Of a DNA stretch of 32,000 nucleotides, positions 1-32,000 are shown in pieces. Location: NCBI GenBank assembly GCA_036689225.1, contig CP144768.1, positions 90,001-122,000 on the forward strand, given 5' to 3'. Position 1 is the stretch's first letter; every line of letters starts with the position of its first letter. The notes under the pieces were generated by a model, which worked only from the letters and a program-made list of their open reading frames with translations, was not told the origin of the DNA and ran no database searches. Both the position numbers and the translations under genes were made by a program. The stretch comes from Candidatus Saccharimonadota bacterium (GTDB lineage Bacteria > Pseudomonadota > Gammaproteobacteria > Enterobacterales > Enterobacteriaceae).

Positions 1-495
1 ATTATTTTTTTTTTTATCTAATTTTATTATTTTAAATTCTAATTCTTTTCCTTCTATTTCTGATATATCTTTTATTGGTTTAACATCTATTAATGAACCT
101 GGTAAAAATGCTTTTATTCCATCTATATTTACAGTTAATCCACCTTTAACTTTACCATTAATAATTCCTTTAATATTTAGTGATTTATTATATGATTTTT
201 CTATATTTAATCATGTTTCATATTTTTTAGCTTTTTCTCTTGATAATAGAGTTTCTCCTCATTCACTTGCTATATCATCTATAGATAAATCTACTATATC
301 ATTTATATTTATGTTTATTTTTCCATTTATATCTTTAAATTGTTCTATTGGTATATATGATTCTGATTTTAATCCTGAATCTATAATTACTATATTATGT
401 TTTATGTCTATAACTTTTCCTTTAATTATAGAACCATATTTTAAATTTTTTTTTTTGATTGATTTTTTAAATAATTTATTAAATAATTTATTCAT
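1..495 (-). CDS. rpsA: 30S ribosomal protein S1, N-terminal part (3' end runs off the window)
   Basis: The start is ATG at 495. [38 protein letters not shown] parallels E. coli S1 MTESFAQLFEESL..GSIVRGVVV..AGLKSESAIPAEQFK. Reading TGA at 259-261 as a sense codon continues with [11 protein letters not shown], exactly as in S1. The 495 nt form 165 codons in frame down to position 1. Confidence 0.95.
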
Positions 496-536
496 ATTAT
501 TTTATATATATGTATATTTTTAGTTTAAATATAATT

Positions 537-995
537 TTAAAATGTTAAATCATCGAAATCTATAGATAAATCTTCATTTTTATTATTATCTATTTTTTTT
601 TTTTTTATATTATTATTATTATTATTATTGTTATTAATATTATTATTTTTATTACCTAACATTTTCATTGTTCCTTTTGAATTTACTATTATTTCTGTTA
701 TATATTTTTCATATCCATTTTTATCTTTTCATTTTCTTGTTTGTAATGATCCTTCTATATATATTTGTGATCCTTTTTTTAAATATTTTGAAGCTATTTC
801 TGCTAATTTACCAAATAATATTACTTTATGTCATTGTGTTTTTTCTTTTTTTTCCCCTGTTTTTTTATCTTTTCATATTTCTGATGTAGCTATACTTAAA
901 TTTATAATTGCATTTCCATTTGAAGTATATTTTATTTCTGGTTTTTGACCTAAATTACCTATTAAAATTACTTTATTTATACCTTTACTAGTCAT
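537..995 (-). CDS. ssb: single-stranded DNA-binding protein
   Basis: The gene is 152 aa under table 4. [96 protein letters not shown] is an OB-fold SSB with three TGA=Trp codons at classic SSB Trp positions. An N/K-rich linker follows, then the acidic tip IDFDDLTF (canonical DFDDDIPF). The stop is TAA at 537-539. The plus-strand ORFs 628..948 and 668..889 are antisense shadows. Confidence 0.95.
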
Positions 996-1107
996 TTTAT
1001 TATTTTAGATTAATATTTTTATATATATTTAATTATAATGTATATATATAAAAATATATATATTAATTATTTTGTTTTTTTATATTATATATATTATAAT
1101 ATTTATT

Positions 1108-2475
1108 TTAATTATAGTTATCAAATTTTGATATTTCTCCATTAAATATTAGATTTATTTTTCCTATAGGTCCATTTCTTTGTTTACCTATTATTATTTC
1201 AGCAATTCCTTTAGATTTTATTTTATCATTATATAATTCATCTCTATATATAAACATTATTAAATCTGCATCTTGTTCTATTGATCCAGATTCTCTAAGA
1301 TCTGAATTAACTGGTCTTTTGTCTATTCTTTGTTCAGAAGATCTATTTAATTGAGATAAAGCTATTATAGGTATTTTTAATTCTTTAGCTAATAATTTTA
1401 ATGAACGTGAAATATCTGCTATTTCTAAAGCTCTATTTTCTAATGTAGAAGATGATTTCATTAATTGCAAATAATCTATCATTACTAAACTTAATCCTTT
1501 ATTTTCTTTGTATATTTTTCTAGTTTTTGATCTTATTTCATTATGTGTAATTGTACATGAATCATCTATAAATATATTATTTTTTTTTTTAAGTAAGTCT
1601 ATTATATTTGATATTTTTATTCAATCTTGATAATTTAGTTTACCTGTTTTTATTTTACTTTGTTCTATTCTAGATAAAGAAGATATTATTTTTATTATTA
1701 TTTGTTCTGATGACATTTCTAAACTAAATATTAATACTGGTTTTTTTTGATTAATTGATATATTTTCACATAAATTAATAGCAAATGTTGTTTTACCCAT
1801 TGATGGTCTACTTGCTATTATTATTAAATCTGATTTTTGTAATCCAAAAGTTTTTTTATTTAAATCTTTATAACCTGTATCTATTCCTGTTATATCAAAA
1901 CTTGGATTTTTATATAATTTTTTTATTTTTTTTTTAGTTTTTTTTAATATAGAATTTATGTTAATTGGATTATTATTTTTATTAATTTTTTTTTCTGATA
2001 TTTTTAATATTTTTGATTCTGCTATATTAATTATATCTTTACTATTTTTACCTTTAGGATTATAACTTATTAATATAATTTCATTAGCTATATTTATTAT
2101 TTCTCTAATTATTGATTTTTCTTTTATTATTTCAGCATAATAATTTATATTAGTTAAATTATTTATATTTTGTGAAATTTCAACTAAGTAATTAAAACCT
2201 CCTATTATTTCTAATTTTTTATTTTTTTCTAATGATTCTGATAAACTAATTAAATCTATTGGTTTATATAATATAAATAATTTATTCATTTCATTAAATA
2301 TTATTTGATGAGATTTATAAAAAAAATCTTTTTTTTCTATAATTTTATTTATATTATCTCAATTATTATTATTTAAAATTAATCCTCCTAATACTGATTG
2401 TTCTGCTTCAATAGAATATGGTTGTATATTATTTTTTTTATTTACATTTTGAATATATTTTTTATTTTTTTCCAT
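1108..2475 (-). CDS. dnaB: replicative DNA helicase DnaB
   Basis: The gene is 455 aa, joined across in-frame TGAs (for example 1621-1623, giving the W in ..KLNYQDW, E. coli DDEDW). It carries QPYSIEAEQSVLGGLILNNNNW, Walker A ASRPSMGKTTFAINL, MIDYLQLM, ALSQLNRSSEQRIDKRPVNSDLRESGSIEQDADLIMFIYRDE and IIGKQRNGPIG. The length of 1368 nt is a multiple of 3, and a TAA lies immediately upstream of the ATG at 2475. Confidence 0.97.
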
Positions 2476-2684
2476 ATATTATTATAGTTTTTATTTTAAA
2501 TTAAATATTATTTGTAATTTAAATTTTATTTTTTATAAAATTATTATTAATATGTTTTTATAATAATTTATATATAATTATATTTTTTATTATTTTATTT
2601 TTTCTAAATAATTATATATTAATTATTATAATTATAATTTTAATTATAATTAAATATTAAATTAATAAATTTATTTATATAATT

Positions 2685-3245
2685 TTATTTTTTTTTAAAT
2701 AAAAAAAATTTATTATTTTGGTTTTTTTTTTTTTTATATATTTTTCAAGTATTTGGTATATTTATATATTTATTTTTTTTATGTGTTTCTATATATATTA
2801 AACTATTTTTTTTTATTAATTTATTTTTTTCTATTATTTCAATAGATTTATTTAATATATTAATCATTTTATATGGAGGATCTATAAAAATTAAATCTAA
2901 TTTTATGTTTTTATTTTTTTTTAATCAAGTTATTAAATTTATATTTATTATTTTATAATTTTTATAATTTATTTTTTTTAAATTTTTTTTTATATTTTTA
3001 TATATTTTATAATTTTTTTCTATAAAAAATACAAATTTTGCATTATTAGATAAACATTCTATACCTAATATTCCACTTCCTGAAAAGCAATCTAAACATA
3101 TTTTGTTTTTTATATTATTATTTAATCAATTAAAAATTGTTTTTCTTACTTTTATTAAAGTAGGTTTTAATAATTTATTATTTATTGTTTTTATATGTAT
3201 ATTTTTTAATTTTCCTGATATTATTTTTATATATTTTTTTTTCAT
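2685..3245 (-). CDS. rsmD: 16S rRNA (guanine966-N2)-methyltransferase RsmD
   Basis: The gene is 186 aa under table 4. ..LKPTLIKVRKTIFNWLNNNIKNKICLDCFSGSGILGIECLSNNA..LIFIDPPY.. matches RsmD (E. coli LRPTTDRVRETLFNWL..CLDCFAGSGALGLEALSR..VFVDPPF). Three in-frame TGA codons are read as Trp. The stop is TAA at 2685-2687. Confidence 0.85.
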
Positions 3246-3346: not shown

Positions 3347-4204
3347 ATGTTTAATAATATTATTAATTCTAATTTATTTAATAAAAATAATTTAAATTCT
3401 TATATATATATGGTTAATTCTTTACCTGTTTTATCTTTAGAAAAAGAACATAAATTAATTACTAGATTTTATTATTATGGTGATTTAGAATCAATAAAAG
3501 AATTAATTTTATTAAATTTACGTTTTGTTATATATATAACAAAAAATTATTCTGGTTATGGTTTATCTAGATTAGATTTAATTCAAGAAGGTAATATTGG
3601 TTTAATGAAATCCATAAAAAAATTTAATCCTTTTTTTGGTGTTAGATTAATATCTTTTGCTATTCATTGAATTAAAGCAGAAATACATAATTATATATTA
3701 AAGAATTGGAGAATTGTAAAAATTGCTACAACTAAATCTCAACGTAAATTATTTTTTAATTTAAGAAAAATTAAAAAAAAAATGGGGTGGTTTAATAATA
3801 AAGAAATAAAATTTATTTCTAGTAAATTAAATGTTTCTAAAAAAGATATAATAGAAATGGAATCTAGAATGTTTAATAAAGATATAGAAATAGATTTTAA
3901 TATAAATAATTTTAATAAAAATAAGTTTTTAAATATTTTAGGAGATAAAAATTCTAATTTTGCTAATAATATAGAAATATATAATTGAAAAAAATATATT
4001 TTTAAAAAATTAAAATTTTCTTTAAATATATTAGATAATAGAAGTAAATATATAATTATTTCAAGATGATTAAATAATAAGAAAAAAAAAACATTAAAAA
4101 AATTGGCTGAATATTATTCAGTTTCTGCTGAAAGAATTCGTCAAATAGAAAAAAATGCTATGAAAAAAATAAAAATATTTTTAAAAAATAAAAGTAATTT
4201 TTAG
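3347..4204 (+). CDS. rpoH: RNA polymerase sigma-32 (heat-shock sigma factor)
   Basis: The gene is 285 aa, joined over 3 TGAs. Region 2 reads [62 protein letters not shown], which includes the RpoH box QRKLFFNLR. Region 4 reads TLKKLAEYYSVSAERIRQIEKNAMKK. The gene uses both TGG (3788-3790) and TGA for Trp. The stop is TAG at 4202-4204. Confidence 0.93.
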
Positions 4205-4252
4205 AATTTATTTTGTTTTTATTATTAATGATTTTATATTTATAGGTTTTTT

Positions 4253-4777
4253 GTGACTACTATATTATGTGTTAGAAAAAAAAATTTAGTTGTTATGGGT
4301 GGTGATGGACAAGCTACTTTTGGTAATGTTATTTTAAAAAGTAATGTAAAAAAAGTTCGTAAATTATATTCAAATAAAATTATTGCTGGTTTTGCTGGTG
4401 GTACAGCTGATGCTTTTACATTATTTGAATGTTTTGAAAAAAAATTAGAAATTTATCAAGGTAATATTATAAAATCAGCTGTTGAATTAGCTAAAGATTG
4501 AAGAACAGATAGAAATTTAAGAAAATTAGAAGCTTTATTAGCTATTGCAGATATTAAATATTCTTTAATAATTACTGGTAATGGTGATATTATTCAACCT
4601 GAAAATGATTTAATTGCTATTGGTAGTGGAGGTTCTTATGCATTAGCTTCTGCAAGATCTTTATTAGAAAATACTGATTTAAATGCTCGTTGTATAGTAA
4701 AAAAATCTTTATCTATTTCAGCTGATATATGTTTATATACTAATCATAATTTTATTATAGAAGAATTATGTTATTAA
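4253..4777 (+). CDS. hslV: ATP-dependent protease subunit HslV
   Basis: The start is GTG at 4253, followed by the catalytic Thr (M)[33 protein letters not shown] is present, and [21 protein letters not shown] has TGA 4499-4501 at the conserved Trp (E. coli ELAKDWRTDR). The C-terminus ..[16 protein letters not shown] resembles E. coli ..ICIYTNHFHTIEELSY. The stop is TAA at 4775-4777. Confidence 0.96.
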
Positions 4778-4798: not shown

Positions 4799-6118
4799 AT
4801 GTATAATGAAATGACTCCTCAAGAAATTGTAAATGAATTAAATAAATTTATTATTGGTCAAGATAATGCTAAAAAAGCAGTTGCTATTGCTTTAAGAAAT
4901 AGATGACGTAGAATGCAATTAACTAAAGAATTTAGAAATGAAATTACTCCTAAAAATATTTTAATGATAGGACCTACTGGTGTAGGTAAAACTGAAATAG
5001 CTCGTCGTTTAGCTAAATTAAGTAATTCTCCTTTTATTAAAGTGGAAGCTACTAAATTTACTGAAGTAGGTTATGTTGGTAAAGAAGTTGATTCTATAAT
5101 AAGAGATTTAATAGATTATGCTGTAAAAATGATTAAAAATCAAACTATAGAAATTAATATATTAAAAGCTAAAAAAATAGCTGAAAAACGTGTATTTAAT
5201 ATTTTAATTCAAAATTTAGATAAAAATAATGATAAAAATTATGTTATAGAAAAAGATTCTATATTACATAAATTACGTAATGGAGATTTAGATAATAAAA
5301 TTATTGATGTTAATATTAATATTCCTTCATTAGGAATAGAAATAATGTCTCCTCCTGGTATGGAAGATATGACTAATCAATTACAATCTATTTTTCGTAA
5401 TTTGAGTAGTAAAAAAAAAAAAATACATAAATTAAAAATAAAAGATGCTATGAATTTACTTATTGAAGAAGAATCATCTAAATTAGTTAATTTTGATGAT
5501 GTTAAACGTAGAGCTATTGATTTAGTAGAACAACAAGGTATTGTTTTTATTGATGAAATTGATAAAGTTTGTAAAAGAGGAGAAATTAGTGATTCTGGTG
5601 TATCTAGAGAAGGAGTTCAAAGAGATTTATTACCTTTAATAGAAGGTTGTACAGTATCTACTAAATATGGTGTTATTAAAACTGATTATATATTATTTAT
5701 AGCTTCAGGATCTTTTCAATTTTGTAGTCCTTCAGATTTAATACCTGAATTACAAGGTAGATTACCTATTAAAGTAGAATTAAGTGCTTTAACAAATAAA
5801 GATTTTGAAAGAATTTTAGTTGAACCAGATATTTCTATTACATCACAATATAAAAATTTATTAAAAGTTGAAGGTGTTAAAATAAGTTTTACTAATGATG
5901 GAATAAAGTCTTTAGCTAATATTTCTTGAAAGATTAATGAAAATACAGATAATATAGGTGCTAGAAGATTACATACAGTATTAGAAAAATTAATGGAAGA
6001 TATATCTTTTAATGCTAATAAATATAAAAATAAATCAATTTTAATAGATTCTAAATATGTAAATTTAAAATTAAATAATTTAATTATAAGTGAAGATTTA
6101 AGTAAATTTATATTATAA
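4799..6118 (+). CDS. hslU: ATP-dependent protease ATPase subunit HslU
   Basis: The gene is 439 aa. [41 protein letters not shown] is nearly identical to the E. coli HslU N-terminus, with TGA 4904-4906 at the conserved Trp. Walker A reads [21 protein letters not shown] and Walker B reads [19 protein letters not shown] is present, and a second TGA is read as W in ..[21 protein letters not shown]. Confidence 0.97.
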
Positions 6119-6260: not shown

Positions 6261-6536
6261 ATGAAATTTAAAAATTGAAATAGAAATATAGCTATAAATA
6301 TAGCTTTTAAAGAAAATATTATTTTAAATATATATTATTGAAGAATAATTTTTTATTTTAGATTTTATTATTTAAAAAATAAAATTATTCCTAATACAAG
6401 AAATTTATTAAATTTTTTAAATAAAAGATATAATTATAAATATAATAGTTTATATTTATTTAAATTATTTCCAAAAGGAGTAATAAAACAAATTACTAAA
6501 ATTTCTTGTTTACCTAATAATATGCAATGTTTTTAG
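6261..6536 (+). CDS. hypothetical 91-aa protein (orphan; open only under table 4)
   Basis: The frame runs from ATG at 6261 to TAG at 6534-6536 and contains two in-frame TGAs. It translates to MKFKNWNRNIAINIAFKENIILNIYYWRIIFYFRFYYLKNKIIPNTRNLLNFLNKRYNYKYNSLYLFKLFPKGVIKQITKISCLPNNMQCF. A stretch of 91 codons without TAA or TAG is improbable by chance in DNA this AT-rich. I recognise no homologue. Confidence 0.3.
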
Positions 6537-6549: not shown

Positions 6550-6762
6550 ATGAAAAAAAAAATACATCCTAAAATTTTTAGTTTAAAAATAAGTTGTTCT
6601 TGTGGAAATATAATAAATATTTTATCTACATTAAAAAATAATTTTTTTGTAGATGTTTGTTATAAATGTCATTCTTATTATACAGGAAAACAAAAAACTT
6701 CCTTTTCTAAAGGAAGAATAGAAAATTTAAAAAAAAGATTTAATAATATAAATTATATATAG
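6550..6762 (+). CDS. rpmE: 50S ribosomal protein L31
   Basis: MKKKIHPKIFSLKISCSCGNIINILSTL..VDVCYKCHSYYTGKQK..GRIENLKKRFN matches L31 (E. coli [47 protein letters not shown]), including the Cys motif. The stop is TAG at 6760-6762. Confidence 0.93.
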   Translation: MKKKIHPKIFSLKISCSCGNIINILSTLKNNFFVDVCYKCHSYYTGKQKTSFSKGRIENLKKRFNNINYI

Positions 6763-6798: not shown

Positions 6799-8058
6799 TT
6801 AATTTATTTTTATATTTAAATTTTTAAATTTTTCTATTATATTTTCATATCCTCTATATACATGATATATAGATTTTATTATTGTTTTACCATATGCAAT
6901 ACATCCTGCTAGTATTAATGTTATTGAACATCTTAAATCTTTTGCAATTATAGTTTTACCAAAAATTTTTTTTACTCCATAACATATAATTTTATTATTT
7001 ATATTTTTTATTTTTGCACCCATTTTTTTTAATTCTTTAATATGTGAAAATCTTTTTTTAAATATATTTTCTATTATAATACTATTTCCTTTAGAAATAG
7101 AATTAAGTAATGTAAATTGTGGTTGCATATCTGTAGGAAAATTTGGATATGGATTAGTAATAATATTTACTGATTTACATCTTTTATTTTTCATATCTAA
7201 CATTATAAAATCATTTTTAATTTTAATTTTTGCTCCAGATAATTTTAATTTATTTATTATACATTTTAATAAATTAGGATTTGTATTATAACAAATTATT
7301 TTTCCTTTTGATATTGCGGATGCTAATAGATATGTTCCTGTTTCTATTCTATCTGGTAATATTTTATATATTATACATGATGATAATTTTTTAATTCCAT
7401 ATATAATTATTGTATTTGTTCCTGCTCCATATATATTTGCTCCTGATTTATTTAAAAAATTTATTGTATCTATTATTTCAGGTTCTTTAGAAGAATTTTT
7501 TATTATAGTTTTTCCTTTTATAAATATTGATGCTAATATACTTGTAATTGTAGCTCCTATACTTTTTTTTTTAAAAAAAATTATATTTGATTTTAATTTT
7601 TTATTTATTTTAGCTTTTATAATATTATTTTTATATTTTATTTTTACTCCTAAACATTTTAATGCATATAAATGTAAATCTATTGGTCTAGAACCTAGAT
7701 TACATCCTCCTGGAGTATTTAAAGTAATTTTTTTACATCTTATTAAAATTGGACTTAATAATCATATAGATGCTCTAATTTTTTTAATTAAATTTAATGG
7801 AAAATAATTATTATTTATATTTTTTGAGTTTATTATTATAGTATTTTTTTCTCTTATTATTTTTATACCTATTTTTTTAAATAATTTTAAAGTTATATTT
7901 ATATCTTCTATATTTGGTATATTTTTTATTGTTATTTCTTCTTTTATTAATAAAGAACTATATAATATTGGTAAAGCTGAATTTTTTGATCCTGATATTT
8001 TAACTTCTCCTTTTATTTTATTTGGTCCTAATATTATAAATTTATTTTTTTTTTTCAT
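6799..8058 (-). CDS. murA: UDP-N-acetylglucosamine 1-carboxyvinyltransferase
   Basis: The gene is 419 aa, joined at TGA 7762-7764 (..KKIRASIW-LLSPIL, E. coli TMRASIWALGPL). It carries GEVKISGSKNSALPIL, the catalytic Cys loop TPGGCNLGSRPIDLH, ILPDRIETGT, FPTDMQPQFTLL and DLRCSITLILAGCIA..IYHVYRGYE. The length of 1260 nt is a multiple of 3. Confidence 0.96.
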
Positions 8059-8821
8059 TATTATTTTTTATTATATTTAATATTTTAATAAAATTTTTTA
8101 TTTTAAGTGAATAATTACCTATTAATAATCCATCTATATTTTTTTGTGTTATAATTTTTTTTATATTTTTTATATTTATTGAACCTCCATATAATATTTT
8201 AATATTTTTAATATTTTTTTTACTTTTTTTATATATATAATTTTTAATATAAATATTTATTTTATTTATATGTTTTATATTTGCTATTTGTCCTGTACCT
8301 ATAGCTCATATTGGTTCATAAGCTATTATTATATTTTTAAATATATTAATATTATTTTTTTTTATTATATATTTTATTTGATTTTTACATATTTTTAAAC
8401 TTTTTTTATTTTTATAATCTTTTATATTTTCTCCTATACATAATATAGGAATTATTTTATTTTTTTGTGCTAATATAATTTTTTTTAATATAATTTTATT
8501 GTTTTCTTTATGATTTTTTCTTCTTTCTGAATGTCCAATTAATGTATATTTTATTCCAATATCTTGTAACATTATTGGAGATGTTTCTCCTGTATAAGGT
8601 CCTATTAAATTTTTATCAATATTTTGTGATATTAAATTTATATTTTTATTTTTTTTAATTATTTTTTTTATTTTATATAAATATATTATTGGAGGTGCTA
8701 TTAATATTAATATTTTATTATTTTTATTATATTTATTATATTTTATTAGTTTTTTAAAATATTTTTTTATAAATTTTAAATTTCCATTTAATTTTCAATT
8801 AGCTATAATTATTTTTTTCAT
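8042..8821 (-). CDS. tpiA: triosephosphate isomerase
   Basis: The gene is 259 aa. MKKIIIANW-KLNGN has TGA at 8795-8797, GHSERR is present, ILCIGEN is present, and AYEPIW-AIGTG has TGA at 8306-8308. ILYGGSIN is also present. The 3' end reads ..IKNNNEKKK-TAA, with the stop at 8042-8044, so it overlaps the murA start by 17 nt. Confidence 0.93.
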
Positions 8822-8932: not shown

Positions 8933-9859
8933 ATGAAATATAAATCTGCTTTTTTAGATAGTATTAATAATTTTTTAAATATTAAAGAAAATGGAATATA
9001 TATAGATTGTACATTTGGTTGTGGTTATCATTCTCTTAAAATATTAAATTATTTAGGAAAAAAAGGTAAATTATATTCTTTTGATTGCGATTATGATTCT
9101 ATTAAAATTGGAAAAAAAATAATTAAAGATAATCGTATAAAATTAATAAATGATAATTTTATTAATTTAGAATATTATATTAAATTATTTAATTTATATA
9201 AAAAAATTGATGGTATTATTTTTGATTTAGGATTATCTTCTATACAATTGGATAATTCTATCAGAGGTTTTTCTTTTTTAAAAAATGGTCCTTTGGATAT
9301 GAGAATGAATCAAAAATTAGGTTTTCCTTTAAAAATTTGAATTAATAAAGCAAAAGAAAAAAATATTTATAATATAATAAAAAAATATGGACAAGATTAT
9401 AATTCTAAAAGAATATCAAAAAATATATTTTTATATTGTAAAAATAAAATTTTAAAAACTACTAATGATTTATCTAATATAGTAAAATATTCTGTAAATA
9501 ATTATAAAGATTATAAAAGTAAAGCTAGAGTTTTTCAAGCTTTTAGAATATTTATTAATAATGAATTATTTAATTTAAAAAATATTTTATATAAATGTTA
9601 TAAATTTTTGTCTAAAAAAGGTAGATTAGTTATAATTAGTTTTAATTCATTAGAAGATAAAATAGTAAAAGAATTTATTAAAATAAAATCAGATAGTAAT
9701 TATTCATTAATTAATAATATACCTTTAACTATTAATCAAATTAATAATTTTAATCCACCTGAATTAATTAATTTAGGTAAATTTAAACCTTTAAAAAAAG
9801 ATATTATTATAAATAATAGAATAAGAAGTGCTATATTAAGAGTTGCAGAAAAAATTTAG
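8933..9859 (+). CDS. rsmH: 16S rRNA (cytosine1402-N4)-methyltransferase RsmH/MraW
   Basis: The gene is 308 aa with one internal TGA. GIYIDCTFGCGYHS, IDGIIFDLGLSSIQLD..RGFSFLKNGPLDMRM, RVFQAFRIFINNEL, GRLVIISFNSLEDKIVK and RSAILRVAEK all parallel E. coli RsmH. The stop is TAG at 9857-9859. Confidence 0.93.
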
Positions 9860-9882
9860 TTTTGTTTAATAAGAGGTTTTTT

Positions 9883-12731: not shown

Positions 12732-12738
12732 GATAAAT

Positions 12739-15097: not shown

Positions 15098-15123
15098 AAT
15101 TTTAATTTATATATAATTATAGA

Positions 15124-16164: not shown

Positions 16165-16184
16165 TAATATGAAATTTTATTAAA

Positions 16185-17630: not shown

Positions 17631-17657
17631 TTTTTATTAAATTTATAATAATTTTAT

Positions 17658-18578: not shown

Positions 18579-18868
18579 TTTATAATTTTAATTTTTTTTA
18601 TTTTTGGATAGTTTATTTTTTTTATTATTTTTTTATTTTTTTTAATTAAGTATTTTTTTATATTTTTGTTATTAGTTTTTATATATATATTATTTTTTTT
18701 TATATTTATTATTTTATATTTTTTATTATTTTTTTTTAATAAAATATTGTTTATTTTTTTATTAATTTTTTTTATTAGTTTACTTTTTAATATTATTGAA
18801 TATAAATTACTTTTTTTTTTAAGATTATTAATTATTTTTTTAAATAATTTTGGTTTTTTATTTTTCAT
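18575..18868 (-). CDS. hypothetical 97-aa highly basic (Lys/Asn/Ile) protein; function unknown (speculatively DUF721/DciA-like)
   Basis: The frame runs from ATG at 18868 to TAA at 18575-18577 with no internal stop. It translates to [97 protein letters not shown]. It fills most of the ddl|secA gap and converges on ddl with a 4-nt overlap. A 71-aa Phe-rich ORF on the plus strand (18666..18881, TTG start) covers the same DNA, so the coding strand is not certain. Confidence 0.35.
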
Positions 18869-18985
18869 TATTGTTTTTTAATTTATAATAATATATATTA
18901 TAAATTACCTTAAATATTAAATAATAATATATATTTTATATTATTATTATAAATTTTTTATTATATACAAATTTTATATATTATT

Positions 18986-21571: not shown

Positions 21572-23014
21572 ATGATTAAAAATAATTTTTTTTGTTTATT
21601 TTTAATATTAATTTTATTTAATAATAATTATGTTTATAGTAATAAAAAAATAATTTTAAATTATTCTAAATTATTTAAAATTAATAATAATAATAATAAT
21701 AATTGTAATTTTTTAAATAATGTTTGTTCTTCATTAGTTTTAATAAAATCACGAATATTTTCTTTTAAAAATATTTATTATAAATATAATAATATTTTAA
21801 ATTTTAAATATTATTTAAATTTTTTAAAATATAAAAAATATAATAATAATTTTAATTTTTATATTAAAAAAAATAATTTTTTTAAAAAAAAAAATAGATC
21901 TTATTATTATAGTTTTGGTACTGGTATTATTATTGATAATATTAATGGTTATATTATTACTAATAGTCATGTTATTGATATGAGTAATGATATATTAATA
22001 AAATTAAATGATGGTAGAGAATATTCTGCATTTTTAGTTGGACAAGATAAATATGTTGATATAGCTGTTTTAAAAATTAAAAATTTTAAAAATATTAATT
22101 CTATTAAAATAGGAAATTCTGATAATTTATATTTGGGGGAAAAAATTTTTTCTTTAGGTTATCCTTATAATTTAAATTTATCTATTACTTCTGGTATAAT
22201 TTCTGGTTTAAATAGAAATAATATAGGTATACAAAAATATGAAAATTTTATTCAAACTGATTCTTTAATTAATTCTGGTAATTCAGGTGGTGCTTTAATA
22301 AATATTAAAGGAGAATTAATAGGTATTAATACTGCTGCATTAGTTTCTAATAATGGAAATAATTTAGGTATAAGTTTTTCTATACCTATTAATATGATAA
22401 AAAATATTGTAAATCAAATTATTAAAATAGGAGAATCTAAACATATAAATTTTGGTTTTTTTGCTATTAATATAGATAATAATATAAAAAAAATAAAAAA
22501 TATTTATAATAATTTTGGAGTATTTATTACTTATATAAAAAAAAATTCTTTATTTAATAAATATAAAATATTTGTTGGTGATATTATATTATTTATTAAT
22601 AATAAATTTGTTTTATCTTTAGAAGATTTAAATTATAAATTATCTACATTTTTAGTAGGTGATTATATTAATATAGGTTTATTAAGAAAAAATAAATTAA
22701 TATATAAAAAAATATTTTTATTTAATGATGATAAAAATATTTATAATTTTGATATTTTATATAATAATTTTAAAAATTTAGGTTTAACTACATATAATTA
22801 TTTAAATTTAAATAAAAATAATATATATGGAGTATATATAAGTAAAATATTAAATAATAATAATTTTTTTAAAATTGGTGATATTATTATTAATATAAAT
22901 AATAAAAATATTAATAATTTATTAGATTTAAGAAAAATTTTATATTTAAAACCTAAATTTATTTTAATAAAATTATTACGTAACAGAAAATTTATTTATT
23001 ATTATTTAAAATAA
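21572..23014 (+). CDS. degP: periplasmic serine endoprotease DegP/DegQ (HtrA family)
   Basis: The gene is 480 aa with a signal-like N-terminus, MIKNNFFCLFLILILFNNNYVYS. The catalytic triad contexts are GTGIIIDNINGYIITNSHVI, DIAVLKI and YENFIQTDSLINSGNSGGALINIKGELIGINTA, the last nearly identical to E. coli DegP. Two PDZ-like C-terminal repeats are present (GDIILFINNK.., GDIIININNK..). The gene has no Trp codon at all. Confidence 0.9.
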   Translation: MIKNNFFCLFLILILFNNNYVYSNKKIILNYSKLFKINNNNNNNCNFLNNVCSSLVLIKSRIFSFKNIYYKYNNILNFKYYLNFLKYKKYNNNFNFYIKKNNFFKKKNRSYYYSFGTGIIIDNINGYIITNSHVIDMSNDILIKLNDGREYSAFLVGQDKYVDIAVLKIKNFKNINSIKIGNSDNLYLGEKIFSLGYPYNLNLSITSGIISGLNRNNIGIQKYENFIQTDSLINSGNSGGALINIKGELIGINTAALVSNNGNNLGISFSIPINMIKNIVNQIIKIGESKHINFGFFAINIDNNIKKIKNIYNNFGVFITYIKKNSLFNKYKIFVGDIILFINNKFVLSLEDLNYKLSTFLVGDYINIGLLRKNKLIYKKIFLFNDDKNIYNFDILYNNFKNLGLTTYNYLNLNKNNIYGVYISKILNNNNFFKIGDIIININNKNINNLLDLRKILYLKPKFILIKLLRNRKFIYYYLK

Positions 23015-23029
23015 TTATAATTTTATAAT

Positions 23030-24133
23030 ATGTGTTTAAAAAATAATTTATCATTAAAATGAAGACCAAAATTTTTTAAAGATTTTACTGGTCATAGTTA
23101 TATAATTAAAATATTAATTAATAGTTTAAAATTTAATAAAATACATAATTGTTATTTATTTTATGGTTCTCATGGTGTAGGAAAAACTAGTTTAGCTAGA
23201 GTTTTTTCTAAAAGTTTAAATTGTATTAAAGGTATTAATTATAATTTTTGTGGTAAGTGTTTAAATTGTATAAATATTGATTTAAATAAATCTTCTGATG
23301 TAATAGAAATAGATGCAGCTTCTAGAACTAAAATAGATGATATTAAAGAAATTTTAGATAAAATTTATTATTTACCAATTTCTATGCGTTATAAAATATA
23401 TATAATTGATGAAATACATATGTTATCTCGTTATAGTTTTAATTTTTTATTAAAAATATTAGAAGAACCTCCTAAACATGTAAAGTTTATTTTAGCTACT
23501 ACTGAAATTAATAAAATTCCTGATACTATTTTATCTAGATGTATATCTTTTTATTTAAAACCTTTAAATCAAAATAATATTATTAAAAGAATGAATTATA
23601 TTTTATTAAAGGAAAATATAAAAATAAATTTTAATATTTTAAAATTAATATCTTTATATTGTAAAGGTAGTATGAGAGATGCTTTGAATATTTTAGATAA
23701 ATTATTTATGTTAAATTTAAATAATAATTTTTCTATTAAAAATATATATTCATTATTAGATATAGTAAATTATAAATGAATATTATTATTAATGAAGTAT
23801 TTGTTTATTAAAAATAAAAAAATATTTTTTTTATTATATAAATTAAATAATTTAGATATAAATTATAATAATTTTTTAGTAATTTTAATTGAAAATATTC
23901 ATAATTTATTATTTTTATTTTTATATCCAAATTATATAAATTATTTAGATAAACATTATATAAATATTAAAATTTTAATGAACTTAAAAAAATTAATAAA
24001 TTTAAAAGATATTATATTTTATTATAAATTATTTTTATTATGTAAAAAAAATATATCAATTATTGATAATAAAAAAATTATTTTTGAATTTTATGTTATT
24101 AGAGCTTATATATATAAAAATTTTTTTTTATAG
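23030..24133 (+). CDS. dnaX: DNA polymerase III clamp-loader subunit DnaX, short (gamma-like, domains I-III only)
   Basis: The gene is 367 aa with two internal TGAs. LSLKW-RPKFFKDFTGH, YLFYGSHGVGKTSLAR, the Zn module NC..FCGKCLNC, IEIDAASRTKIDD, IYIIDEIHMLS, FNFLLKILEEPPKHVKFILATTE, ILSRC and GSMRDALN parallel the E. coli DnaX N-terminal two thirds. The stop is TAG at 24131-24133. Confidence 0.92.
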
Positions 24134-24219
24134 TTATTAATTTATAGTAAAAAAATATTTTATTTGTTAATATATTATTAAATTAAATTTATTTATTCAA
24201 ATATAATATAGGAAATATA

Positions 24220-26094
24220 ATGAAAAAAGAAATTCATGTTTTTAAATCAGAAATAAAAGAATTATTGAATATTATGATAAATTCTTTATATTCTAATAAA
24301 GAAATTTTTTTAAGAGAATTAATTTCAAATTCTTCTGATGCTATAGATAAATTAAAATTTTATTATAATAATAATAATATAAATTTAAATAATGATTTTT
24401 TTATTAAAATTTATATAAATAATAATAATTTAATTATTAGTGATAATGGAATTGGTATGAATAAAAAGGAATTAATTAATAATTTAGGTAAAATAGCTAA
24501 ATCAGGTACAAAAGAATTTTTAAATAAATATATTAATTTAAATAATAAAAATAATTTAAATATGATAGGCCAATTTGGTGTTGGTTTTTATTCTTCATTT
24601 ATGGTATCTAATGAAGTTTTTGTTCATACTAAATCTATTTATGATAAAGAAAATGGATATTTATGAAATTCTGATGGTCATGGTAAATATACTATTATTA
24701 AAAAAAAAAAAGATTATGTTGGTACTGATGTTATATTAAATATAAAAGATTCTTGTAAAAATTTTTTAATTGAATCTAATATAAAAAAAATTGTAATTAA
24801 ATATTCTAATTATGTTAATGTTCCTATTAAAATTAAATATTTTAATAAAAAAGAAAATAAATATATATTAAAACAAATTAATATATCTAATGCTTTATGA
24901 ATTGAAAATAAAAATAATATATCTAATAAAGAATATATTGATTTTTATCATTCATTGACTAATAATTTAGGAAATCCATTAATTTGATCACATAATAGAG
25001 TTGAAGGAAAAAATGATTATATTAGTTTAATTTATATACCTAGTATTTCTCCTTGAAATATATGAAATAGAGATGAATATAAAAATGGTATTAAATTATA
25101 TATAAATAGAATTTTTGTTATGGATAGTATTACTAAAATAGTACCTTTTTATTTAAGATTTATTCAAGGTATAATAGATACTAATGATTTACCTTTAAAT
25201 ATTTCTCGTGAAATATTACAAAATAGTGATTTTATTAATATTTTACGTGTTTCTATAACTAATAAAGTATTAAAAATGTTAAATAAATTATCTTTAAATA
25301 AAGATAATTATTTTATTTTTTGAAAAGAATTTGGAAATATTTTTAAAGAAGGTTTAGCTGAAGATCAATCTAATAATTATAAAATATCTTTATTATTAAG
25401 ATTTTCTTCTACTTATTATAATTCTGAAAAAAAATATGTTTCTTTAGAAGATTATTTAAATCGTATGATACCTGGTCAAGATAAAATTTTTTATATTATT
25501 TCTGATAATTATTTATCTTCTTTTAATAGCCCTCATTTAGAAATATATCGTAAAAAAAATATAGAAGTATTATTAATGTATAATAGAATAGATGAATGAA
25601 TGATGTCTTATTTAAATGATTTTAAAGGAATAAAATTTTGTTCTATAAATAAAAATGATATTAATATTTCTAATAATATTATTTCTTTAAATAAATCTGA
25701 AATTATATATAATAATAAAAATAATTTAGATAATTTTATATTAAAAGTAAAAAATGTATTATTAAAATATAACATTAAAGATGTTATATTAACTAATAAG
25801 TTAGATAATTTTCCTGTTGTTGTTACTACATCTGTTAATGAAATTAGTACTCAAATGTCTAAATTATTATCTGCTGTTGGAAAATCTATTCCTGAAATAA
25901 AATATTTATTGGAAATAAATCCTAATCATATTTTAATAAAATATATTAGTAATATTAAAGATAATTTTTTATTTAAAAAATGAATTTATTATTTATTTTA
26001 TCAAGCATTATTAATTGAAACTAATTCTTTAGATAATCCTACTAAATTTATTAATATTATTAATGATATATTATCTAAATTAATTATGAATTAA
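24220..26094 (+). CDS. htpG: molecular chaperone HtpG (Hsp90)
   Basis: The gene is 624 aa, the length I recall for E. coli HtpG, joined over 8 TGAs. FKSEIKELLNIMINSLYSNKEIFLRELISNSSDAIDKL, ISDNGIGM, IAKSGTKEF, IGQFGVGFYSSFMV, LPLNISREILQ and IFYIISD are present. The stop is TAA at 26092-26094. Confidence 0.96.
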
Positions 26095-26242
26095 TTTTTT
26101 ATATTAATTAATTTTATTTTATTTTTTAAAAAAAATAAAATGTTAAAATTATTTTTAATTTAAAATTAATTTATTTATAATATTTTTTATATAAATCTTA
26201 TTTAAGATATATTTAATAATTTAGTTTTAAATAATGTATAAT

Positions 26243-26270
26243 TATTTTTTATAATATATTATAAAAAATA
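26243..26270. repeat. 28-bp perfect palindrome in the htpG/recA convergent spacer
   Basis: Read directly from the sequence: TTATTTTTTATAATA|TATTATAAAAAATAA. It is flanked by an imperfect inverted repeat, 26218..26235 AATTTAGTTTTAAATAAT versus 26311..26327 ATTATTTAAACTAAATT, with a one-base indel. Its function is unknown and it could be a bidirectional terminator. Confidence 0.6.
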
Positions 26271-26395
26271 TTTTTTATTTAATAATTATTTATTAATAAT
26301 TTTATTAAATATTATTTAAACTAAATTATTATTTTATATTTATTATTTTTTTATTATTATATATATAATATATAATAATTTTTTTTTAAAATATT

Positions 26396-27382
26396 TTAAA
26401 TATTTTTTTTTTTTTTTATATTATTTAATATTTCTATATATATTTTTTTATTTTTTTTTATAAATTTTGATGAATTTATTTTACCTTGTCCTAATTTAAT
26501 ATTATTATAATAATATCAAGTAGATTTTTTTTTTATTATATTATATTTAACTCCTACATTTAATATATCTTCATATATATTTATTCCTTTATTATATAAT
26601 ATTTGAAATTTTGCTTCTTTAAATGGAGAAGATAATTTATTTTTTACTATTTTTACTTTTATTTCATTTCCTATTATATTTTCTTTTTTTTTTATAATTC
26701 CTATTTTTCTTATATCCATTCTAATAGAAGAGTAAAATTTTAAAGCATTTCCTCCAGTAGTAGTTTCTGGATTACCAAATAATATTCCTATTTTTATTCT
26801 AATTTGATTTATAAATATTAATAATATATTAGATTTACATATATTTTTTGCTAATTTTCTCATAGCTTGACTCATCATTCTAGCAGATAAACCTATATGA
26901 GAATCTCCTATATTTCCTTCTATTTCTATTTTTGGTGTTAATGCTGCTACTGAATCTACTATTATTATATCTATAATTTTTTTTTTTGCTAATGAATTAC
27001 AAATTTCTAAAGCTTGTTCTCCATTATCTGGTTGAGAAAATAATAATTTTTCTATATTAACTCCAATTTTTTTTGCATAATTTGGATCTAGTGCATGTTC
27101 TGCATCTATAAATATACATTTTTTATTTTTTTTTTGTGCTGATGCTATTATTTCTAATGTTAATGTTGTTTTTCCAGATGATTCTGGACCATATATTTCT
27201 ATTATTCTACCTAAAGGTAATCCTCCTATACCTAATGCTATATCTAAAGATATAGAACCTGTTGATATTGTTTTTATATTTTTATATATTTTATTATTAT
27301 TTAATTTCATTATAGATCCTTTACCAAATTTATTTTCTATATATTTTATAGTATTATCTATTGATTTATTATTTTTATTCAT
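26396..27382 (-). CDS. recA: recombinase RecA
   Basis: The gene is 328 aa. [72 protein letters not shown] and [16 protein letters not shown] are present. TGA at 26516-26518 is the conserved Trp (..[16 protein letters not shown]. coli GAWYSYKGEKIGQGK). The stop is TAA at 26396-26398. Confidence 0.97.
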
Positions 27383-27478
27383 TTTTTTGTATATATGTAA
27401 TAATTTATATATTATTATATAATATTAATATATTTAGTTAATATATAAATAATTTTATTTAATATAAATTTTAAAATT

Positions 27479-30163
27479 ATGTTTAAAAGTTTTAATGAAA
27501 TACGTTATTTATTTATAGATTTTTTTAAATCTAAAAATCATTTTTTAATTGATAGTAGTTCTTTAATTCCTGAAGATAATAGTTTATTATTTACAAATGC
27601 AGGTATGAATCAATTTAAAAATATTTTTTTAGGTTTAAAGAAAAGTTTATTTAAAGAAGTAGTTACTATACAACGTTGTTTAAGAGTAGGTGGTAAACAT
27701 AATGATATAAATAATATAGGATATACATATAGACATAATACGTTTTTTGAAATGATGGGAAATTTTAGTTTTAATTCTTATTTTAGAAAAGAATCAATTT
27801 TATATGCTTGAGAATTATTAACTTCTAAAAAATGATTTGGATTAAATAAAAATAAATTAATTATTACTGTTAATATAAATGATTTTAAAACATATAAAAT
27901 ATGATCTAATATAATTAATATAAATAAAAATAATATTTTTTTAGTTGGTAAAAAATGTATTAATATAAATAAAAATTTAGATAATTTTTGACAAATGTCA
28001 GAATTTGGTCCATGTGGATATAGTACTGAAATATATTATAATATTAATTCTATTAAAGATATTAATAATTTTTTATTATATAAAGATACTAATAAATATT
28101 TAGAGATTTGAAATTTAGTTTTTATAGAATATAATATTATTAATAATAATAAAATTGTTTTTTTACCATATAAATCTGTTGATACAGGTATGGGTTTAGA
28201 AAGAATATCTTCAGTTTTACAAAATGTTATTTCAAATTTTGATATTGATATATTTATAAAATTAAAAAAATATATTTCTAATTTTTTAGATATTAAATTA
28301 AATAAAAAAAATTGTTTTATTTTTAATTTAATTTCTGATCATTTAAGATCTATTATATATCTAATAATAGATAATGTATTACCTTCTAATGAATATAGAG
28401 GCTATATATTAAGAAAAATTATTAGAAGAACTTTAACTTATATTTATTTATTATTAAAAAATAAAAATTTTATTTTAAATAAATTATTATATTTTATTAA
28501 AGATTGATTTTTTTATTATTATAATATAAATAATAAAAATATTTTTTTAAAAATTAAAAATATAGTTTTAAAAGAAGAAGAAAAATATTTTAATAATTTA
28601 TATAATAATTTAAATATTTTATATTTTTATTTAAAAAAAATAAATAATAAAAATAATATTTTAGATGGAAAAATTGTATTTTTATTATATGATACTTATG
28701 GTTTATATTTAGATATTATAATTGAAGTATGTAAATATAATAATATTAATATTGATTTTAAACAATTTTATTATTTATTAGATTTACAAAAAAAAAAATC
28801 TAAATTAAATAGTTCATTTAATGATTTTAATTTAAATATTAATAATTTAAATAATATTAAAAAAACTAAATTTTTAGGTTATAATATTAATTGTTGTTAT
28901 ACTAAAGTTATTAATATATTTTATAATAATATTCAAATTGATTATTTTGATAAAATTAATAAAAAAATAATAATTATATTATCTAGTACTGTTTTATATC
29001 CTGAATGTGGTGGACAAGTTGGAGATAGAGGTATTATATATAATAGTAATTTTAAATTTTTTGTTTATAATACTAAAATTTTAGGTAAATATATAATTCA
29101 TATTGGTAAATTAGAATATGGATTTATTAAAATTAATAATTTAGTAAAAGTAAAATATGATAATAAATATAGATTTGATATATCTTGTAATCATTCAGTT
29201 TGTCATATATTATTATATATTTTAAAAAAAATTTTTTCTAAAAATATTAAACAATGTGGTTCTTTTATAAAAAATAATTATTTTACTTTAGATTTTTATT
29301 ATAATTTTAATTTAGATAATATAAAAATATATAAAATAAATAAAAAAGTAAATGAAATAATATGAAAAAAATTAAATTTTTCAGAAAATTTTATAAAATT
29401 AAATGATATAAATAAAAAATTTATATTTTTAAATAAAAAAAAATATGCTCGTATTGTTAGTTTTGGTAATTATATAAATGATTATTGTTGTGGTACACAT
29501 ATTAATAATACTTGTAATATAAATTTATTTATAATTAAAAAACAATATAATATTTCTAATAATATAAAACGTATAAAAGCATTTACTAATTTATATGCAT
29601 TAAAATATATAAATAAAAATTTATTTTTTTTAAAAAATATTTATAAATTGTTATCTATAAATAAAAAAAATTTATATAAAAAAATATTATATATAAATAA
29701 ATATAAAGTAGAAAATAAAAAAAAAGAAAAATTAATATATAATATATTAATCAATAATATTTTATCTCAAATATTAATAAATGATATTATTAAATATATT
29801 AAAATAAATATTTTAATAAAAAGATTTTTTTATAATGATTTTTTAAATGAAAATATATTATTTATAATAATAAATAAATTAAAAGTTAAATTTAATTTAT
29901 CATTAATAATTTTTATATTAAAAATATGTAATATTAATAAATTAATTTTTTTTTTAAATAAAAATATATTATTTAATTTTAATTTAGATATTTTAAATAA
30001 TAAATTTATTAATATTAAATTTGATAGAATTATAAAAAAAAATAATTTTTTTATAGAATTTTTTAATATTTTATATTTGAAAGATAATTTTAATTTATCT
30101 AAAATAATAAAATTTGTTAAATTTAAGTTGTTAAATTTTAATAAAAATATTATTATTAAATAA
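27479..30163 (+). CDS. alaS: alanine--tRNA ligase
   Basis: The gene is 894 aa, joined across in-frame TGAs. [51 protein letters not shown] and YAW-ELLTSKKW-F are present, with TGAs at 27809-27811 and 27833-27835 on the two Trp of E. coli [28 protein letters not shown] and [16 protein letters not shown] are also present, and the editing-domain motifs HSVCH and CCGTH are kept. The C-terminal domain is very divergent. Confidence 0.96.
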
Positions 30164-30175
30164 TAAGGATATAAA

Positions 30176-30361
30176 ATGCTTATTTTAACTCGTAGAATTG
30201 GTGAAACATTAATTATTAAAGATGATATAATTATAACAGTTTTAGCAATTAAAGGTAATCAAGTACGTATAGGAATTAATGCTCCTAAAAATATTTCTGT
30301 TCATAGAAAAGAAATATATATAAAAATTATTAAAAAAAAAAAAAATATTTTAAATAAATAA
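30176..30361 (+). CDS. csrA: carbon storage regulator / translational repressor CsrA
   Basis: [48 protein letters not shown] closely matches E. coli Csr[54 protein letters not shown] lies upstream of the ATG at 30165-30169. Confidence 0.96.
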
Positions 30362-30381
30362 TTTTATATTTTTAATTATTT

Positions 30382-30467
30382 GGTGAGATGACCGAGTGGT
30401 TTAAGGTGCTCCTCTGCTAAGGGAGAATGCTTAAAAAGCATCGAGGGTTCGAATCCCTCTCTCACCT
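30382..30467 (+). tRNA. serV: tRNA-Ser (anticodon GCU)
   Basis: I folded the cloverleaf by hand. The acceptor stem is GGTGAGA/TCTCACC and the anticodon stem is CTCCT/GGGAG, with loop CT-GCT-AA (GCT at 30416-30418). The long variable arm is ATGCTTAAAAAGCAT and the T arm is GAGGG-TTCGAAT-CCCTC. It is very similar to E. coli serV. The 3' CCA is not encoded, since TTTT follows. Confidence 0.93.
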
Positions 30468-30475
30468 TTTATAAT

Positions 30476-30548
30476 ACATCCGTAACTCAGTGGATAGAGT
30501 ACTCGGCTACGAACCGAGTTGTCAGGGGTTCGAATCCTCTCGGATGTG
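30476..30548 (+). tRNA. argV: tRNA-Arg (anticodon ACG)
   Basis: ACATCCGTAACTCAGTGGATAGAGTACTCGGCTACGAACCGAGTTGTCAGGGGTTCGAATCCTCTCGGATGTG is near-identical in layout to E. coli tRNA-Arg(ACG), GCATCCGTAGCTCAG..GAGTACTCGGCTACGAACCGAG..GGTTCGAATCC... The anticodon ACG is at 30509-30511. CCA is not encoded. The gene begins 8 nt after tRNA-Ser. Confidence 0.95.
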
Positions 30549-30564
30549 TTTTTTTAAAAATATT

Positions 30565-31644
30565 TTAAAATTTTAAAGTAAATCCTATTGATATTTTATC
30601 GTCATTTTTATTATTTTTTTTATTTAAAAAATTATTTTTATTTAATTGATCTATTTTATAATCTATATATGCAGATAAAGATTTATTAAATTTATATATA
30701 GTTGCTATATTAAAATATTTTTCTGTATTTTTTTTTGATATATTATTTTTTTTTATATTATCTTGTTTTGTTTGTATATATCCTATAATAGGTGTAAATC
30801 CTGATTTAAAATTATATTTTGCTACTATATTAAAATTATAGTTTTTTATTTTATTATTTATTTTTTTTTTATTAAAATTATCTCCTTGAGTATATGTTGT
30901 TGCTAAATATAATTTATTTAAATTATATCTTATACCAGTAGATCATATATTTTTATTTACATTATTATTATTTAATATAATATTTTTTTTATTTATATTT
31001 TTTTTTATATTATATTTTTTTGAAGTATATGAACTAGATAATTCAATACCATATTTAGTTTTTAAATTATAAGTAATACCTCATCCATTTTCTAAAGATT
31101 TTATAATATTATTTGTATTATTATTTGAGTTATTTTTTTTTTGATATTGTAATATAAATGTTGAATTTTTTAATAAAGGTGTATTTTTATTAAAATTTAT
31201 TTTTTTTTTATATGTAATTAAATTATTATTTATATTATTAATAATATTATTTTTATTATTTGGAAATATATTTATATATGATAATGTATTATTTATATTT
31301 TCATAATTTTTTCCATAGCTTATTTTTCCTAAACAATTATCTTTTATACCTATATATAATAAATTTATATTAATATTATTATTTTTTTTATTTGTTTTAT
31401 TATTTTTTTCTAAAATTGTTTTTATTTTTCCAAATGTAGTTATATTTTTATTTAATTTATTTTTTCCTTTAATTGATAAAATTAATGATTTATTTATTTT
31501 TTTATCAAAATATTTATTTGATAATGATCCGTTAATATTTAATAAAAAATTTTTATTTTTTAAAATTGTAATTGATTTAGATGTTTGTATAGTTAATAAT
31601 GATATTATAATAAATATTAATGAATTTTTATTAATTATATTCAT
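30565..31644 (-). CDS. outer-membrane general porin, OmpF/OmpC family
   Basis: The gene is 359 aa, joined over 2 TGAs, with a signal-like N-terminus MNIINKNSLIFIIISLLTIQTSKS. By-eye matches to E. coli OmpF: NIW-STGIRYNLNKLYLATTYTQGDN versus [48 protein letters not shown] versus [22 protein letters not shown], and KYFNIATIYKFNKSLSAYIDYKIDQ versus [25 protein letters not shown]. The C-terminal ..ISIGFTLKF ends in the terminal aromatic Phe. AAGGA lies 7-8 nt upstream of the ATG. Confidence 0.85.
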
Positions 31645-31726
31645 TTTTTTAAATTCCTTATATATTAATTATTATATATTTATTATATAAATATAATTAA
31701 ATATTAACAATATTAATATTTTTTTT

Positions 31727-32000
31727 TTAAAAATTTATATAATTTGGATATCTTGGAAAAGGAATAACATCTTTTATATTTTTCATTTTAGTAATATACA
31801 TTAATAATCTTTCTATTCCTAAACCAAAACCACTATGTGGAATAGTACCATATTTTCTTAAATCTCTATATCATCAATATTTTTTTTTATTTAATTTTTT
31901 TTTTTTTATATTAATATCTAATAATTTTATATTTTCTTCTCTTTCTGAACCACCTATTATTTCTCCTACATTTGGTAAAATTATATCCATACATGATACT
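31727..32000 (-). CDS. asnS: asparagine--tRNA ligase, C-terminal part (5' end beyond window)
   Basis: ..[80 protein letters not shown] matches the E. coli AsnRS C-terminus, [65 protein letters not shown]. The WW pair is encoded by TGA-TGA at 31871-31876. The stop is TAA at 31727-31729. Confidence 0.95.

Follow-up and report, generated by a model that had tools for sequence, protein, structure and literature searches.

UGA as a tryptophan codon in a 32-kb chromosome segment assigned to Candidatus Stammera capleta

A stretch of bacterial DNA of 32 kb (the window, by which we mean the whole stretch analyzed) raises the question of how the codon UGA is translated. It has a G+C content of 14.6%, and most of its genes are interrupted by in-frame TGA when the standard bacterial code (translation table 11) is applied. 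A preliminary description of the same DNA had proposed that UGA is decoded as tryptophan, as in translation table 4. In the present study, genes were delimited by taking TAA and TAG alone as stops; the short open reading frames (ORFs) of table 11 then merged into full-length genes. The window was found to hold 29 protein genes and two tRNA genes, the latter called with ARAGORN and Rfam. The E. coli K-12 proteins of NC_000913.3 served as the orthologue set, and every product of the window was aligned to its own orthologue.

In-frame TGA codons were present in 25 of the 29 genes (86%) and numbered 69 in total. For 67 of them, the alignment placed an E. coli residue opposite the TGA, and 56 of these 67 residues (84%) were tryptophan. 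Over the aligned columns, the tryptophan frequency in E. coli is 1.04%, which gives a binomial tail of 1e-99. E. coli tryptophan was kept as a tryptophan codon at 58 positions, 56 of which were TGA and two TGG. TGG occurred within genes at only three positions (3707, 3788, and 18462), and TGA accounted for 96% of tryptophan codons. The base after TGA was not unusually biased when compared with all codons. The alignments establish UGA in the window as a sense codon that specifies tryptophan, and translation table 4 applies. The central claim of the preliminary description, that UGA encodes tryptophan and that the affected genes are intact under table 4 only, was thus upheld by the residue opposite each TGA. 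Its count of about 20 genes was too low; the need for table 4 stood, and the number is 25 of 29. The TGG at 3788-3790 in rpoH, which it had cited as a sign that TGG is still in use, is present.

The same residue table bears on the identity of the amino acid. UGA may also be translated as glycine (table 25) or as cysteine or selenocysteine, and the reassignment of UGA to glycine is indeed the other one known in bacteria (10.64898/2026.05.24.727570). However, none of the 67 aligned TGA codons was opposite glycine or cysteine, against 56 opposite tryptophan. Furthermore, 69 sites in 25 housekeeping genes are far beyond any set of selenoproteins. We rejected table 25, the code of Gracilibacteria and Absconditabacteria, and selenocysteine recoding on this table, and we regard any amino acid other than tryptophan as vanishingly improbable. 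The non-tryptophan partners of the other 11 TGA codons were phenylalanine (three sites), alanine (two), and serine, histidine, tyrosine, glutamine, arginine, and aspartate (one each).

The source of the DNA was sought through its proteins. With one genome per species, the best match to DnaB was that of Candidatus Stammera capleta CP144850.1 (73% identity); all others were at or below 64%. The table-4 translation of AlaS was 100% identical to a protein on an NCBI contig of 268,407 bp. Approximately 40 more AlaS proteins matched at 45-77% identity; they lie on NCBI contigs of 212-314 kb and ranked above or among the Buchnera matches. Named Stammera chromosomes were 74-77% identical to the AlaS of the window (best, CP043985.1, 77%), whereas Buchnera and other named matches outside Stammera did not exceed 46%. 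Gene order was also common to the window and CP144850.1, CP043985.1, and CP145602.1. In CP144850.1, it matched over rpsA-ssb-dnaB-rsmD-rpoH-hslVU-tusE...tpiA-rsmH, and in CP043985.1 over murG-murC-ddl-ORF-secA-dnaX-htpG-recA-alaS-csrA-tRNAs-porin-asnS. Ca. Stammera is placed in Enterobacterales in the NCBI taxonomy. It is a gut symbiont of tortoise leaf beetles (Cassidinae) that lives outside cells and degrades pectin. Its published ranges are 0.22-0.34 Mb for genome size and 13.9-20.4% for G+C content, and both the 14.6% of the window and the 268-kb contig that bears its AlaS are inside them. On this protein and gene-order similarity, the window is almost certainly part of a Ca. Stammera capleta chromosome of approximately 0.27 Mb and 14-15% G+C that uses table 4, with UGA as tryptophan.

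Sequencing or assembly errors, such as systematic G-to-A changes that turn TGG into TGA, may also be considered. We found no specific support for them. The independent Logan assembly of SRR23946949 corresponds to window positions 21679-31406 and differs by two mismatches in 9,728 bases, and the same pattern recurs in four further Stammera chromosomes, which come from different studies. The probability of an artefact is essentially nil.

The Stammera relatives were informative about the history of individual codons. Three Stammera chromosomes that use code 4 shared TGA with the window at 16, 30, and 23 sites, and TGA and TGG were exchanged at eight sites across these three relatives, which confirms that the two codons are synonymous. 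A different pattern was found in CP144777.1 (312 kb, 19.6% G+C in the locus), which shares with the window the same locus in the same order, dnaX-htpG-recA-alaS-csrA-tRNAs-porin-asnS. Its alaS is intact under table 11. The 18 genes of this locus contain no in-frame TGA and 43 TGG, and three of the 18 end in TGA. CP144777.1 has TGG at 18 of 22 TGA sites of the window, including all eight TGA sites of htpG. Five genomes that form a basal lineage of Stammera were reported to use the standard code and to have kept prfB (gTranslate preprint, 10.64898/2026.05.24.727570), and the behavior of CP144777.1 matches that of this code-11 lineage. The G+C content of CP144850.1 is the same as that of CP144777.1 (19.6%), yet CP144850.1 uses code 4. 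Since the two share a G+C content and differ in code, G+C content alone does not determine the code. Judged from the relatives, the ancestral state of the clade would have been TGG for tryptophan and TGA as a stop. The replacement of TGG by TGA looks like a gradual result of AT pressure after the reassignment, near complete in the lineage of the window: it has reached 96% there, whereas CP144850.1 keeps TGG at approximately 20% of shared sites. The window showed nothing different in kind from other Stammera, and its lineage is near the AT-rich extreme.

We then considered whether the TGA codons are nonsense mutations in a standard-code genome undergoing decay. At first sight, the window resembles such a pseudogene graveyard: 25 of 29 genes are broken under table 11, and extreme AT pressure creates stop codons. 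The longest TGA-free stretch under table 11 was a median 55% of the gene (26 complete genes), and only rpmE, the degP-like gene, csrA, and the dciA-like ORF were unbroken. However, nonsense mutations that arose at random would not hit tryptophan codons in 84% of cases. These genes are never interrupted by TAA or TAG, and neither the frame nor the similarity to E. coli breaks off at any TGA. Moreover, relatives at only 50-80% identity have TGA at these sites, and the standard-code relative has TGG. Pseudogenization was ruled out by these alignment statistics, and as an account of the window it is extremely improbable. The comparison of tables that the preliminary description had outlined came out in its favor, with 25 of 29 genes interrupted under table 11 and full-length with TAA or TAG stops. 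Table 4 is required for this DNA; annotation pipelines that apply table 11 would shatter the 25 genes and report a pseudogene graveyard.

The stop codons point in the same direction. Twenty-eight stops are visible, including that of the small ORF at 18575-18868, and they comprise 22 TAA, six TAG, and no TGA, exactly as previously counted. Among the 28 E. coli orthologues in the comparison, TGA is the stop of seven (ssb, rsmH, murE, murD, murC, dnaX, and htpG); all seven window counterparts end in TAA or TAG. UGA is never a terminator within the window. The junction of murE (9883-11391, plus strand) and murF (11379-12731, plus strand) deserves separate mention. The TGA at 11380-11382 coincides exactly with the stop of E. 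coli murE, within the conserved ATGA overlap with the start of murF. It is followed by AAA AAA TAA, and MurE is extended by W-K-K under table 4. It is the sole site in the window at which sequence alone cannot separate a stop from tryptophan.

This site argues for a dual meaning of UGA, namely tryptophan inside genes and still a stop in some contexts, as proposed for Providencia siddallii PSAC. The reported presence of prfB in 15 Stammera assemblies out of 49, of which only five are code-11 genomes, argues for it as well. On the other hand, none of the 28 genes needs TGA in order to end at its conserved C terminus. A TAA lies two codons past the murE TGA, so that read-through costs only three residues. 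The 68 other TGA codons lie deep in essential genes, such as secA, htpG, alaS, recA, and dnaB, in which efficient termination would be lethal. Furthermore, the code-4 relatives have no TGA stops (0 of 14 and 0 of 16). We consider a dual meaning to be very unlikely; for murE, it would gain weight if the genome retains prfB. With UGA read as tryptophan throughout, the window represents a clean end state, in which UGG is nearly gone, the ancestral UGA stops have been replaced, and that of murE is read through.

We propose that the reassignment occurred inside the Stammera clade, in which the standard-code sister lineage retains TGG and TGA stops. Ancestral TGA stops would have been replaced by TAA or TAG, and the old stop of murE would be read through at the cost of three extra codons. 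After the reassignment, AT-biased mutation may have turned TGG into TGA. Release factor 2, the product of prfB, is the only factor that recognizes UGA. The reading of UGA would be tolerated through the loss of this factor, with no competitor left at the codon. In a published survey of 49 Stammera genomes, tRNA-Trp(CCA) was present, tRNA-Trp(UCA) was not, and prfB was found in 15; prfB was also absent from the Stammera reference genome (PMC10540940). The preliminary description had expected either a UCA anticodon or CCA alone, and a prfB that is missing or degraded; the published surveys give CCA alone, and prfB is missing from most Stammera assemblies but not from all. Because Stammera is reported to have only the CCA tRNA-Trp and none with UCA, UGA would be decoded through wobble, with a C-A mismatch. 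The Stammera tRNA-Trp is described in the literature as having a normal 5-bp anticodon stem. The window and five related loci, together approximately 70 kb of contiguous Stammera gene order, were searched for tRNA-Trp, and only tRNA-Ser(GCU) and tRNA-Arg(ACG) were present. Similarly, prfB was not found in the 32-kb window.

Nothing within the window argues against tryptophan decoding itself. Nevertheless, some points weigh against the proposal as a whole. Its mechanistic half, concerning tRNA-Trp and prfB, rests on surveys of other Stammera assemblies, and the reported presence of prfB in 15 of 49 means that the gene may persist in the genome of the window. In addition, the 11 TGA codons opposite other residues in E. 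coli are not proof of tryptophan at those sites. That many would be expected where positions vary, and the majority are TGA in close relatives, too.

Comparisons with other recoded bacteria place the proposed mechanism in context. Candidatus Zinderia insecticola, a spittlebug symbiont, resembles Stammera in reading UGA as tryptophan, in having a CCA-only tRNA-Trp, and in the loss of prfB; its G+C content of 13.5% is extremely low, like that of the window. However, Zinderia belongs to another class (Betaproteobacteria), and the anticodon stem of its tRNA-Trp is 4 bp long, in contrast to the 5-bp stem reported for Stammera, and has been proposed to enable the reading of UGA. Candidatus Hodgkinia cicadicola, Candidatus Nasuia deltocephalinicola, and Mycoplasmatales also have reduced genomes, have lost release factor 2, and read UGA as tryptophan. 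Unlike Stammera, they have a cognate tRNA-Trp(UCA) and belong to other classes or phyla. The leech symbiont P. siddallii PSAC, a member of Enterobacterales, reads UGA as tryptophan through a CCA tRNA-Trp (PMC10540940), as is proposed for Stammera. PSAC is transitional: approximately 20% of its genes contain UGA, prfB is kept, and some genes may stop at UGA. In the window, UGA is present in 86% of genes and ends none of them.

Judged from the published surveys, Stammera has neither of the two known solutions, the UCA anticodon or the 4-bp stem of Zinderia and Blastocrithidia. We found no published account of how a CCA tRNA suffices for UGA at 69 sites in 32 kb, and approximately ten code-4 Stammera assemblies are said to retain prfB. 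UGA may be decoded by way of an undescribed feature, or beside an intact release factor 2, and either would amount to a third route to reassignment. Candidate features are a D-arm change of the Hirsh suppressor type, a modification of C34, or a ribosomal change. We consider a third route to be unlikely, and the window itself speaks neither for nor against it. The window retains two 16S rRNA methyltransferase genes in a genome of approximately 268 kb, rsmD (m2G966) and rsmH (m4C1402). Both modifications are located at the ribosomal P site. A link between the retention of these genes and UGA decoding is pure speculation.

The code of Stammera has been described before. Both PMC10540940 and bioRxiv 10.1101/2023.12.12.571295 credit the finding of code 4 in Stammera to Salem et al. 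2017; it has been analyzed anew several times since then, and published Stammera genome annotations already use table 4. Among gammaproteobacterial insect symbionts, Stammera is the one clade for which table 4 counts as textbook knowledge. Elsewhere in Gammaproteobacteria, UGA encodes tryptophan in P. siddallii PSAC (PMC10540940) and in Fastidiosibacteraceae XS4 (10.64898/2026.05.24.727570). Both the reassignment in Stammera and the split of the clade into code 11 and code 4 are already known. The preliminary description had presented a gammaproteobacterial lineage with Enterobacterales-like gene order as a notable place for this recoding; that novelty does not hold, because the window belongs to Stammera.

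The individual genes illustrate these results. The preliminary description had singled out 13 TGA codons, and each of them is opposite a tryptophan in E. coli. They are distributed as follows. In dnaB (1108-2475, minus strand; 57% identity to E. coli DnaB), the TGA at 1621 was named, and both it and the TGA at 2359 are opposite tryptophan. The TGA at 4499 in hslV (4253-4777, plus strand; 71% identity) is in the conserved motif AKDW-RTDR. The GTG start codon of hslV (4253-4255) is immediately ahead of the catalytic threonine. In hslU (4799-6118, plus strand; 66% identity), the TGA codons at 4904, the one named, and 5927 are both opposite tryptophan. murA (6799-8058, minus strand; 46% identity) has TGA at 7762 within the conserved RASIW. 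The overlapping tpiA (8042-8821, minus strand) has TGA at 8306 (EPxWAIGT) and 8795 (NWKLNG), both named and both opposite tryptophan. secA (18986-21487, plus strand; 50% identity) contains six TGA codons at 19400, 20030, 20612, 20855, 21128, and 21275, four of which are opposite tryptophan, among them the named 20030 and 20855, one opposite alanine, and one opposite phenylalanine. SecA is shorter than its orthologue by approximately 50 C-terminal residues. In recA (26396-27382, minus strand; 63% identity), the TGA at 26516 is opposite tryptophan. recA is inverted relative to alaS; in E. coli, both are on one strand with recX between them, and recX is absent here. alaS (27479-30163, plus strand) has seven TGA codons, five opposite tryptophan (27809 and 27833 were named), one opposite arginine, and one in a gap. 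The final 150 or so residues of AlaS do not align to the E. coli enzyme. By Pfam, Stammera AlaS has no DHHA1 domain, whereas Buchnera AlaS has one. The 3' part of asnS (31727-32000, minus strand; 59% identity) runs off the right end and holds the named tandem TGA-TGA at 31871-31876, in the conserved YWWYRDL.

The other genes in the left part of the window gave similar results. The 5' part of rpsA (1-495, minus strand) runs off the left end and is 53% identical to E. coli RpsA over 165 residues; its TGA at 211-213 is opposite tryptophan and that at 259-261 opposite phenylalanine. The TGA codons at 729, 831, and 873 in ssb (537-995, minus strand; 63% identity to E. coli SSB) correspond to all three tryptophans of SSB. 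rsmD, for the 16S m2G966 methyltransferase (2685-3245, minus strand; Pfam Cons_hypoth95, E = 8e-50), has TGA at 2745, 2925, and 3126, two opposite tryptophan and one opposite phenylalanine. In rpoH (3347-4204, plus strand; 54% identity to E. coli RpoH), the TGA codons at 3668, 3986, and 4067 and the TGG codons at 3707 and 3788 are all opposite tryptophan (5 of 5). tusE (6261-6536, plus strand), aligned to E. coli TusE, has two TGA codons, both opposite tryptophan, and one TGG upstream of its start. rpmE (6550-6762, plus strand), which encodes L31, has no tryptophan codon and is intact under tables 4 and 11.

The division and cell wall (dcw) cluster (8933-21487) is reduced to rsmH-murE-murF-mraY-murD-murG-murC-ddl, all on the plus strand. 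rsmH (8933-9859; 40% identity to E. coli RsmH) has one TGA at 9338, opposite tryptophan. murE has TGA at 10276, 10633, 10711, 11035, and 11380, four of the five opposite tryptophan; its TTG start is 6 bases 3' of a Shine-Dalgarno-like AAGAGG (window 9871-9885). The TGA codons of murF at 11661 and 12066 are both opposite tryptophan. mraY (12739-13785) has TGA at 13231, 13624, and 13723, one each opposite tryptophan, alanine, and serine. murD (13778-15097) has TGA at 13955, 14714, and 14795, two opposite tryptophan and one opposite histidine. murG (15124-16164) has TGA at 15223, 15373, 15436, and 15856, three opposite tryptophan and one opposite tyrosine. murC (16185-17630) has a single TGA at 17286, opposite tryptophan. 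The TGA at 18396 in ddl (17658-18578) is opposite tryptophan, and its TGG at 18462 is opposite tyrosine. ftsL, ftsI, ftsW, ftsQ, ftsA, ftsZ, lpxC, and secM were absent from their E. coli positions at this locus.

Downstream of secA, the degP-like serine protease gene (21572-23014, plus strand; Pfam Trypsin_2 and PDZ domains) has no tryptophan codon, and E. coli DegP likewise has no tryptophan. dnaX (23030-24133, plus strand) has TGA at 23060 and 23777, one opposite tryptophan and one opposite glutamine. Its product has 367 residues, in contrast to 643 in E. coli, and the tau C-terminal part is gone. All eight TGA codons of htpG (24220-26094, plus strand) are opposite E. coli tryptophan. csrA (30176-30361, plus strand) has no tryptophan codon. 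It is followed by tRNA-Ser (GCU) at 30382-30467 and tRNA-Arg (ACG) at 30475-30549, both on the plus strand. The OmpF-type porin gene (30565-31644, minus strand; Pfam Porin_1, E = 1e-37) has TGA at 30943 and 31081, one opposite tryptophan and one opposite aspartate. The E. coli-like order that had been reported for alaS-csrA-tRNA-Ser(GCU)-tRNA-Arg(ACG), porin-asnS, and dnaX..htpG agrees with the E. coli annotation. GC skew tracked the coding strand, at approximately +0.3 over plus-strand genes and approximately 0 or negative over minus-strand genes (rpsA-dnaB, murA-tpiA, recA, and porin-asnS), with no switch of the replication type.

Between ddl and secA lies a small, very basic ORF of 97 residues (18575-18868, minus strand) with no tryptophan codon and a TAA stop. 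It is conserved in three Stammera genomes (window 18575-18868; locus L095, 2792-3097; locus L097, 1432-1755; all on the minus strand). Two relatives gave sub-threshold matches to Pfam DciA (E = 1e-3), and its best PDB match was the DUF721/DciA chain 8a3v_C of V. cholerae (E = 0.015). In beta- and gammaproteobacteria, dciA adjoins secA, between secA and lpxC. These matches and the position suggest that the ORF is probably the helicase operator DciA. If so, the ancestry of Stammera would be among Enterobacterales without DnaC.

Gene content also differed at several points between the window and its relatives. CP145602.1 retains ftsA-ftsZ ahead of secA, whereas CP043985.1 is without them, like the window. 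Neither priA nor ftsA and ftsZ were found in the window at the positions that they occupy in relatives. The place of murA, between rpmE and tpiA in the window, is taken by priA in CP144850.1 (Pfam PriA_3primeBD; locus L001, 2089-4206), and no match to murA was found there. Where the window has the degP-like gene, between secA and dnaX, CP043985.1 has no gene (locus L095, 5714-5762), and an mtn-like gene occupies this place in CP145602.1 and CP144777.1. Gene content therefore varies among Stammera lineages at fixed positions.

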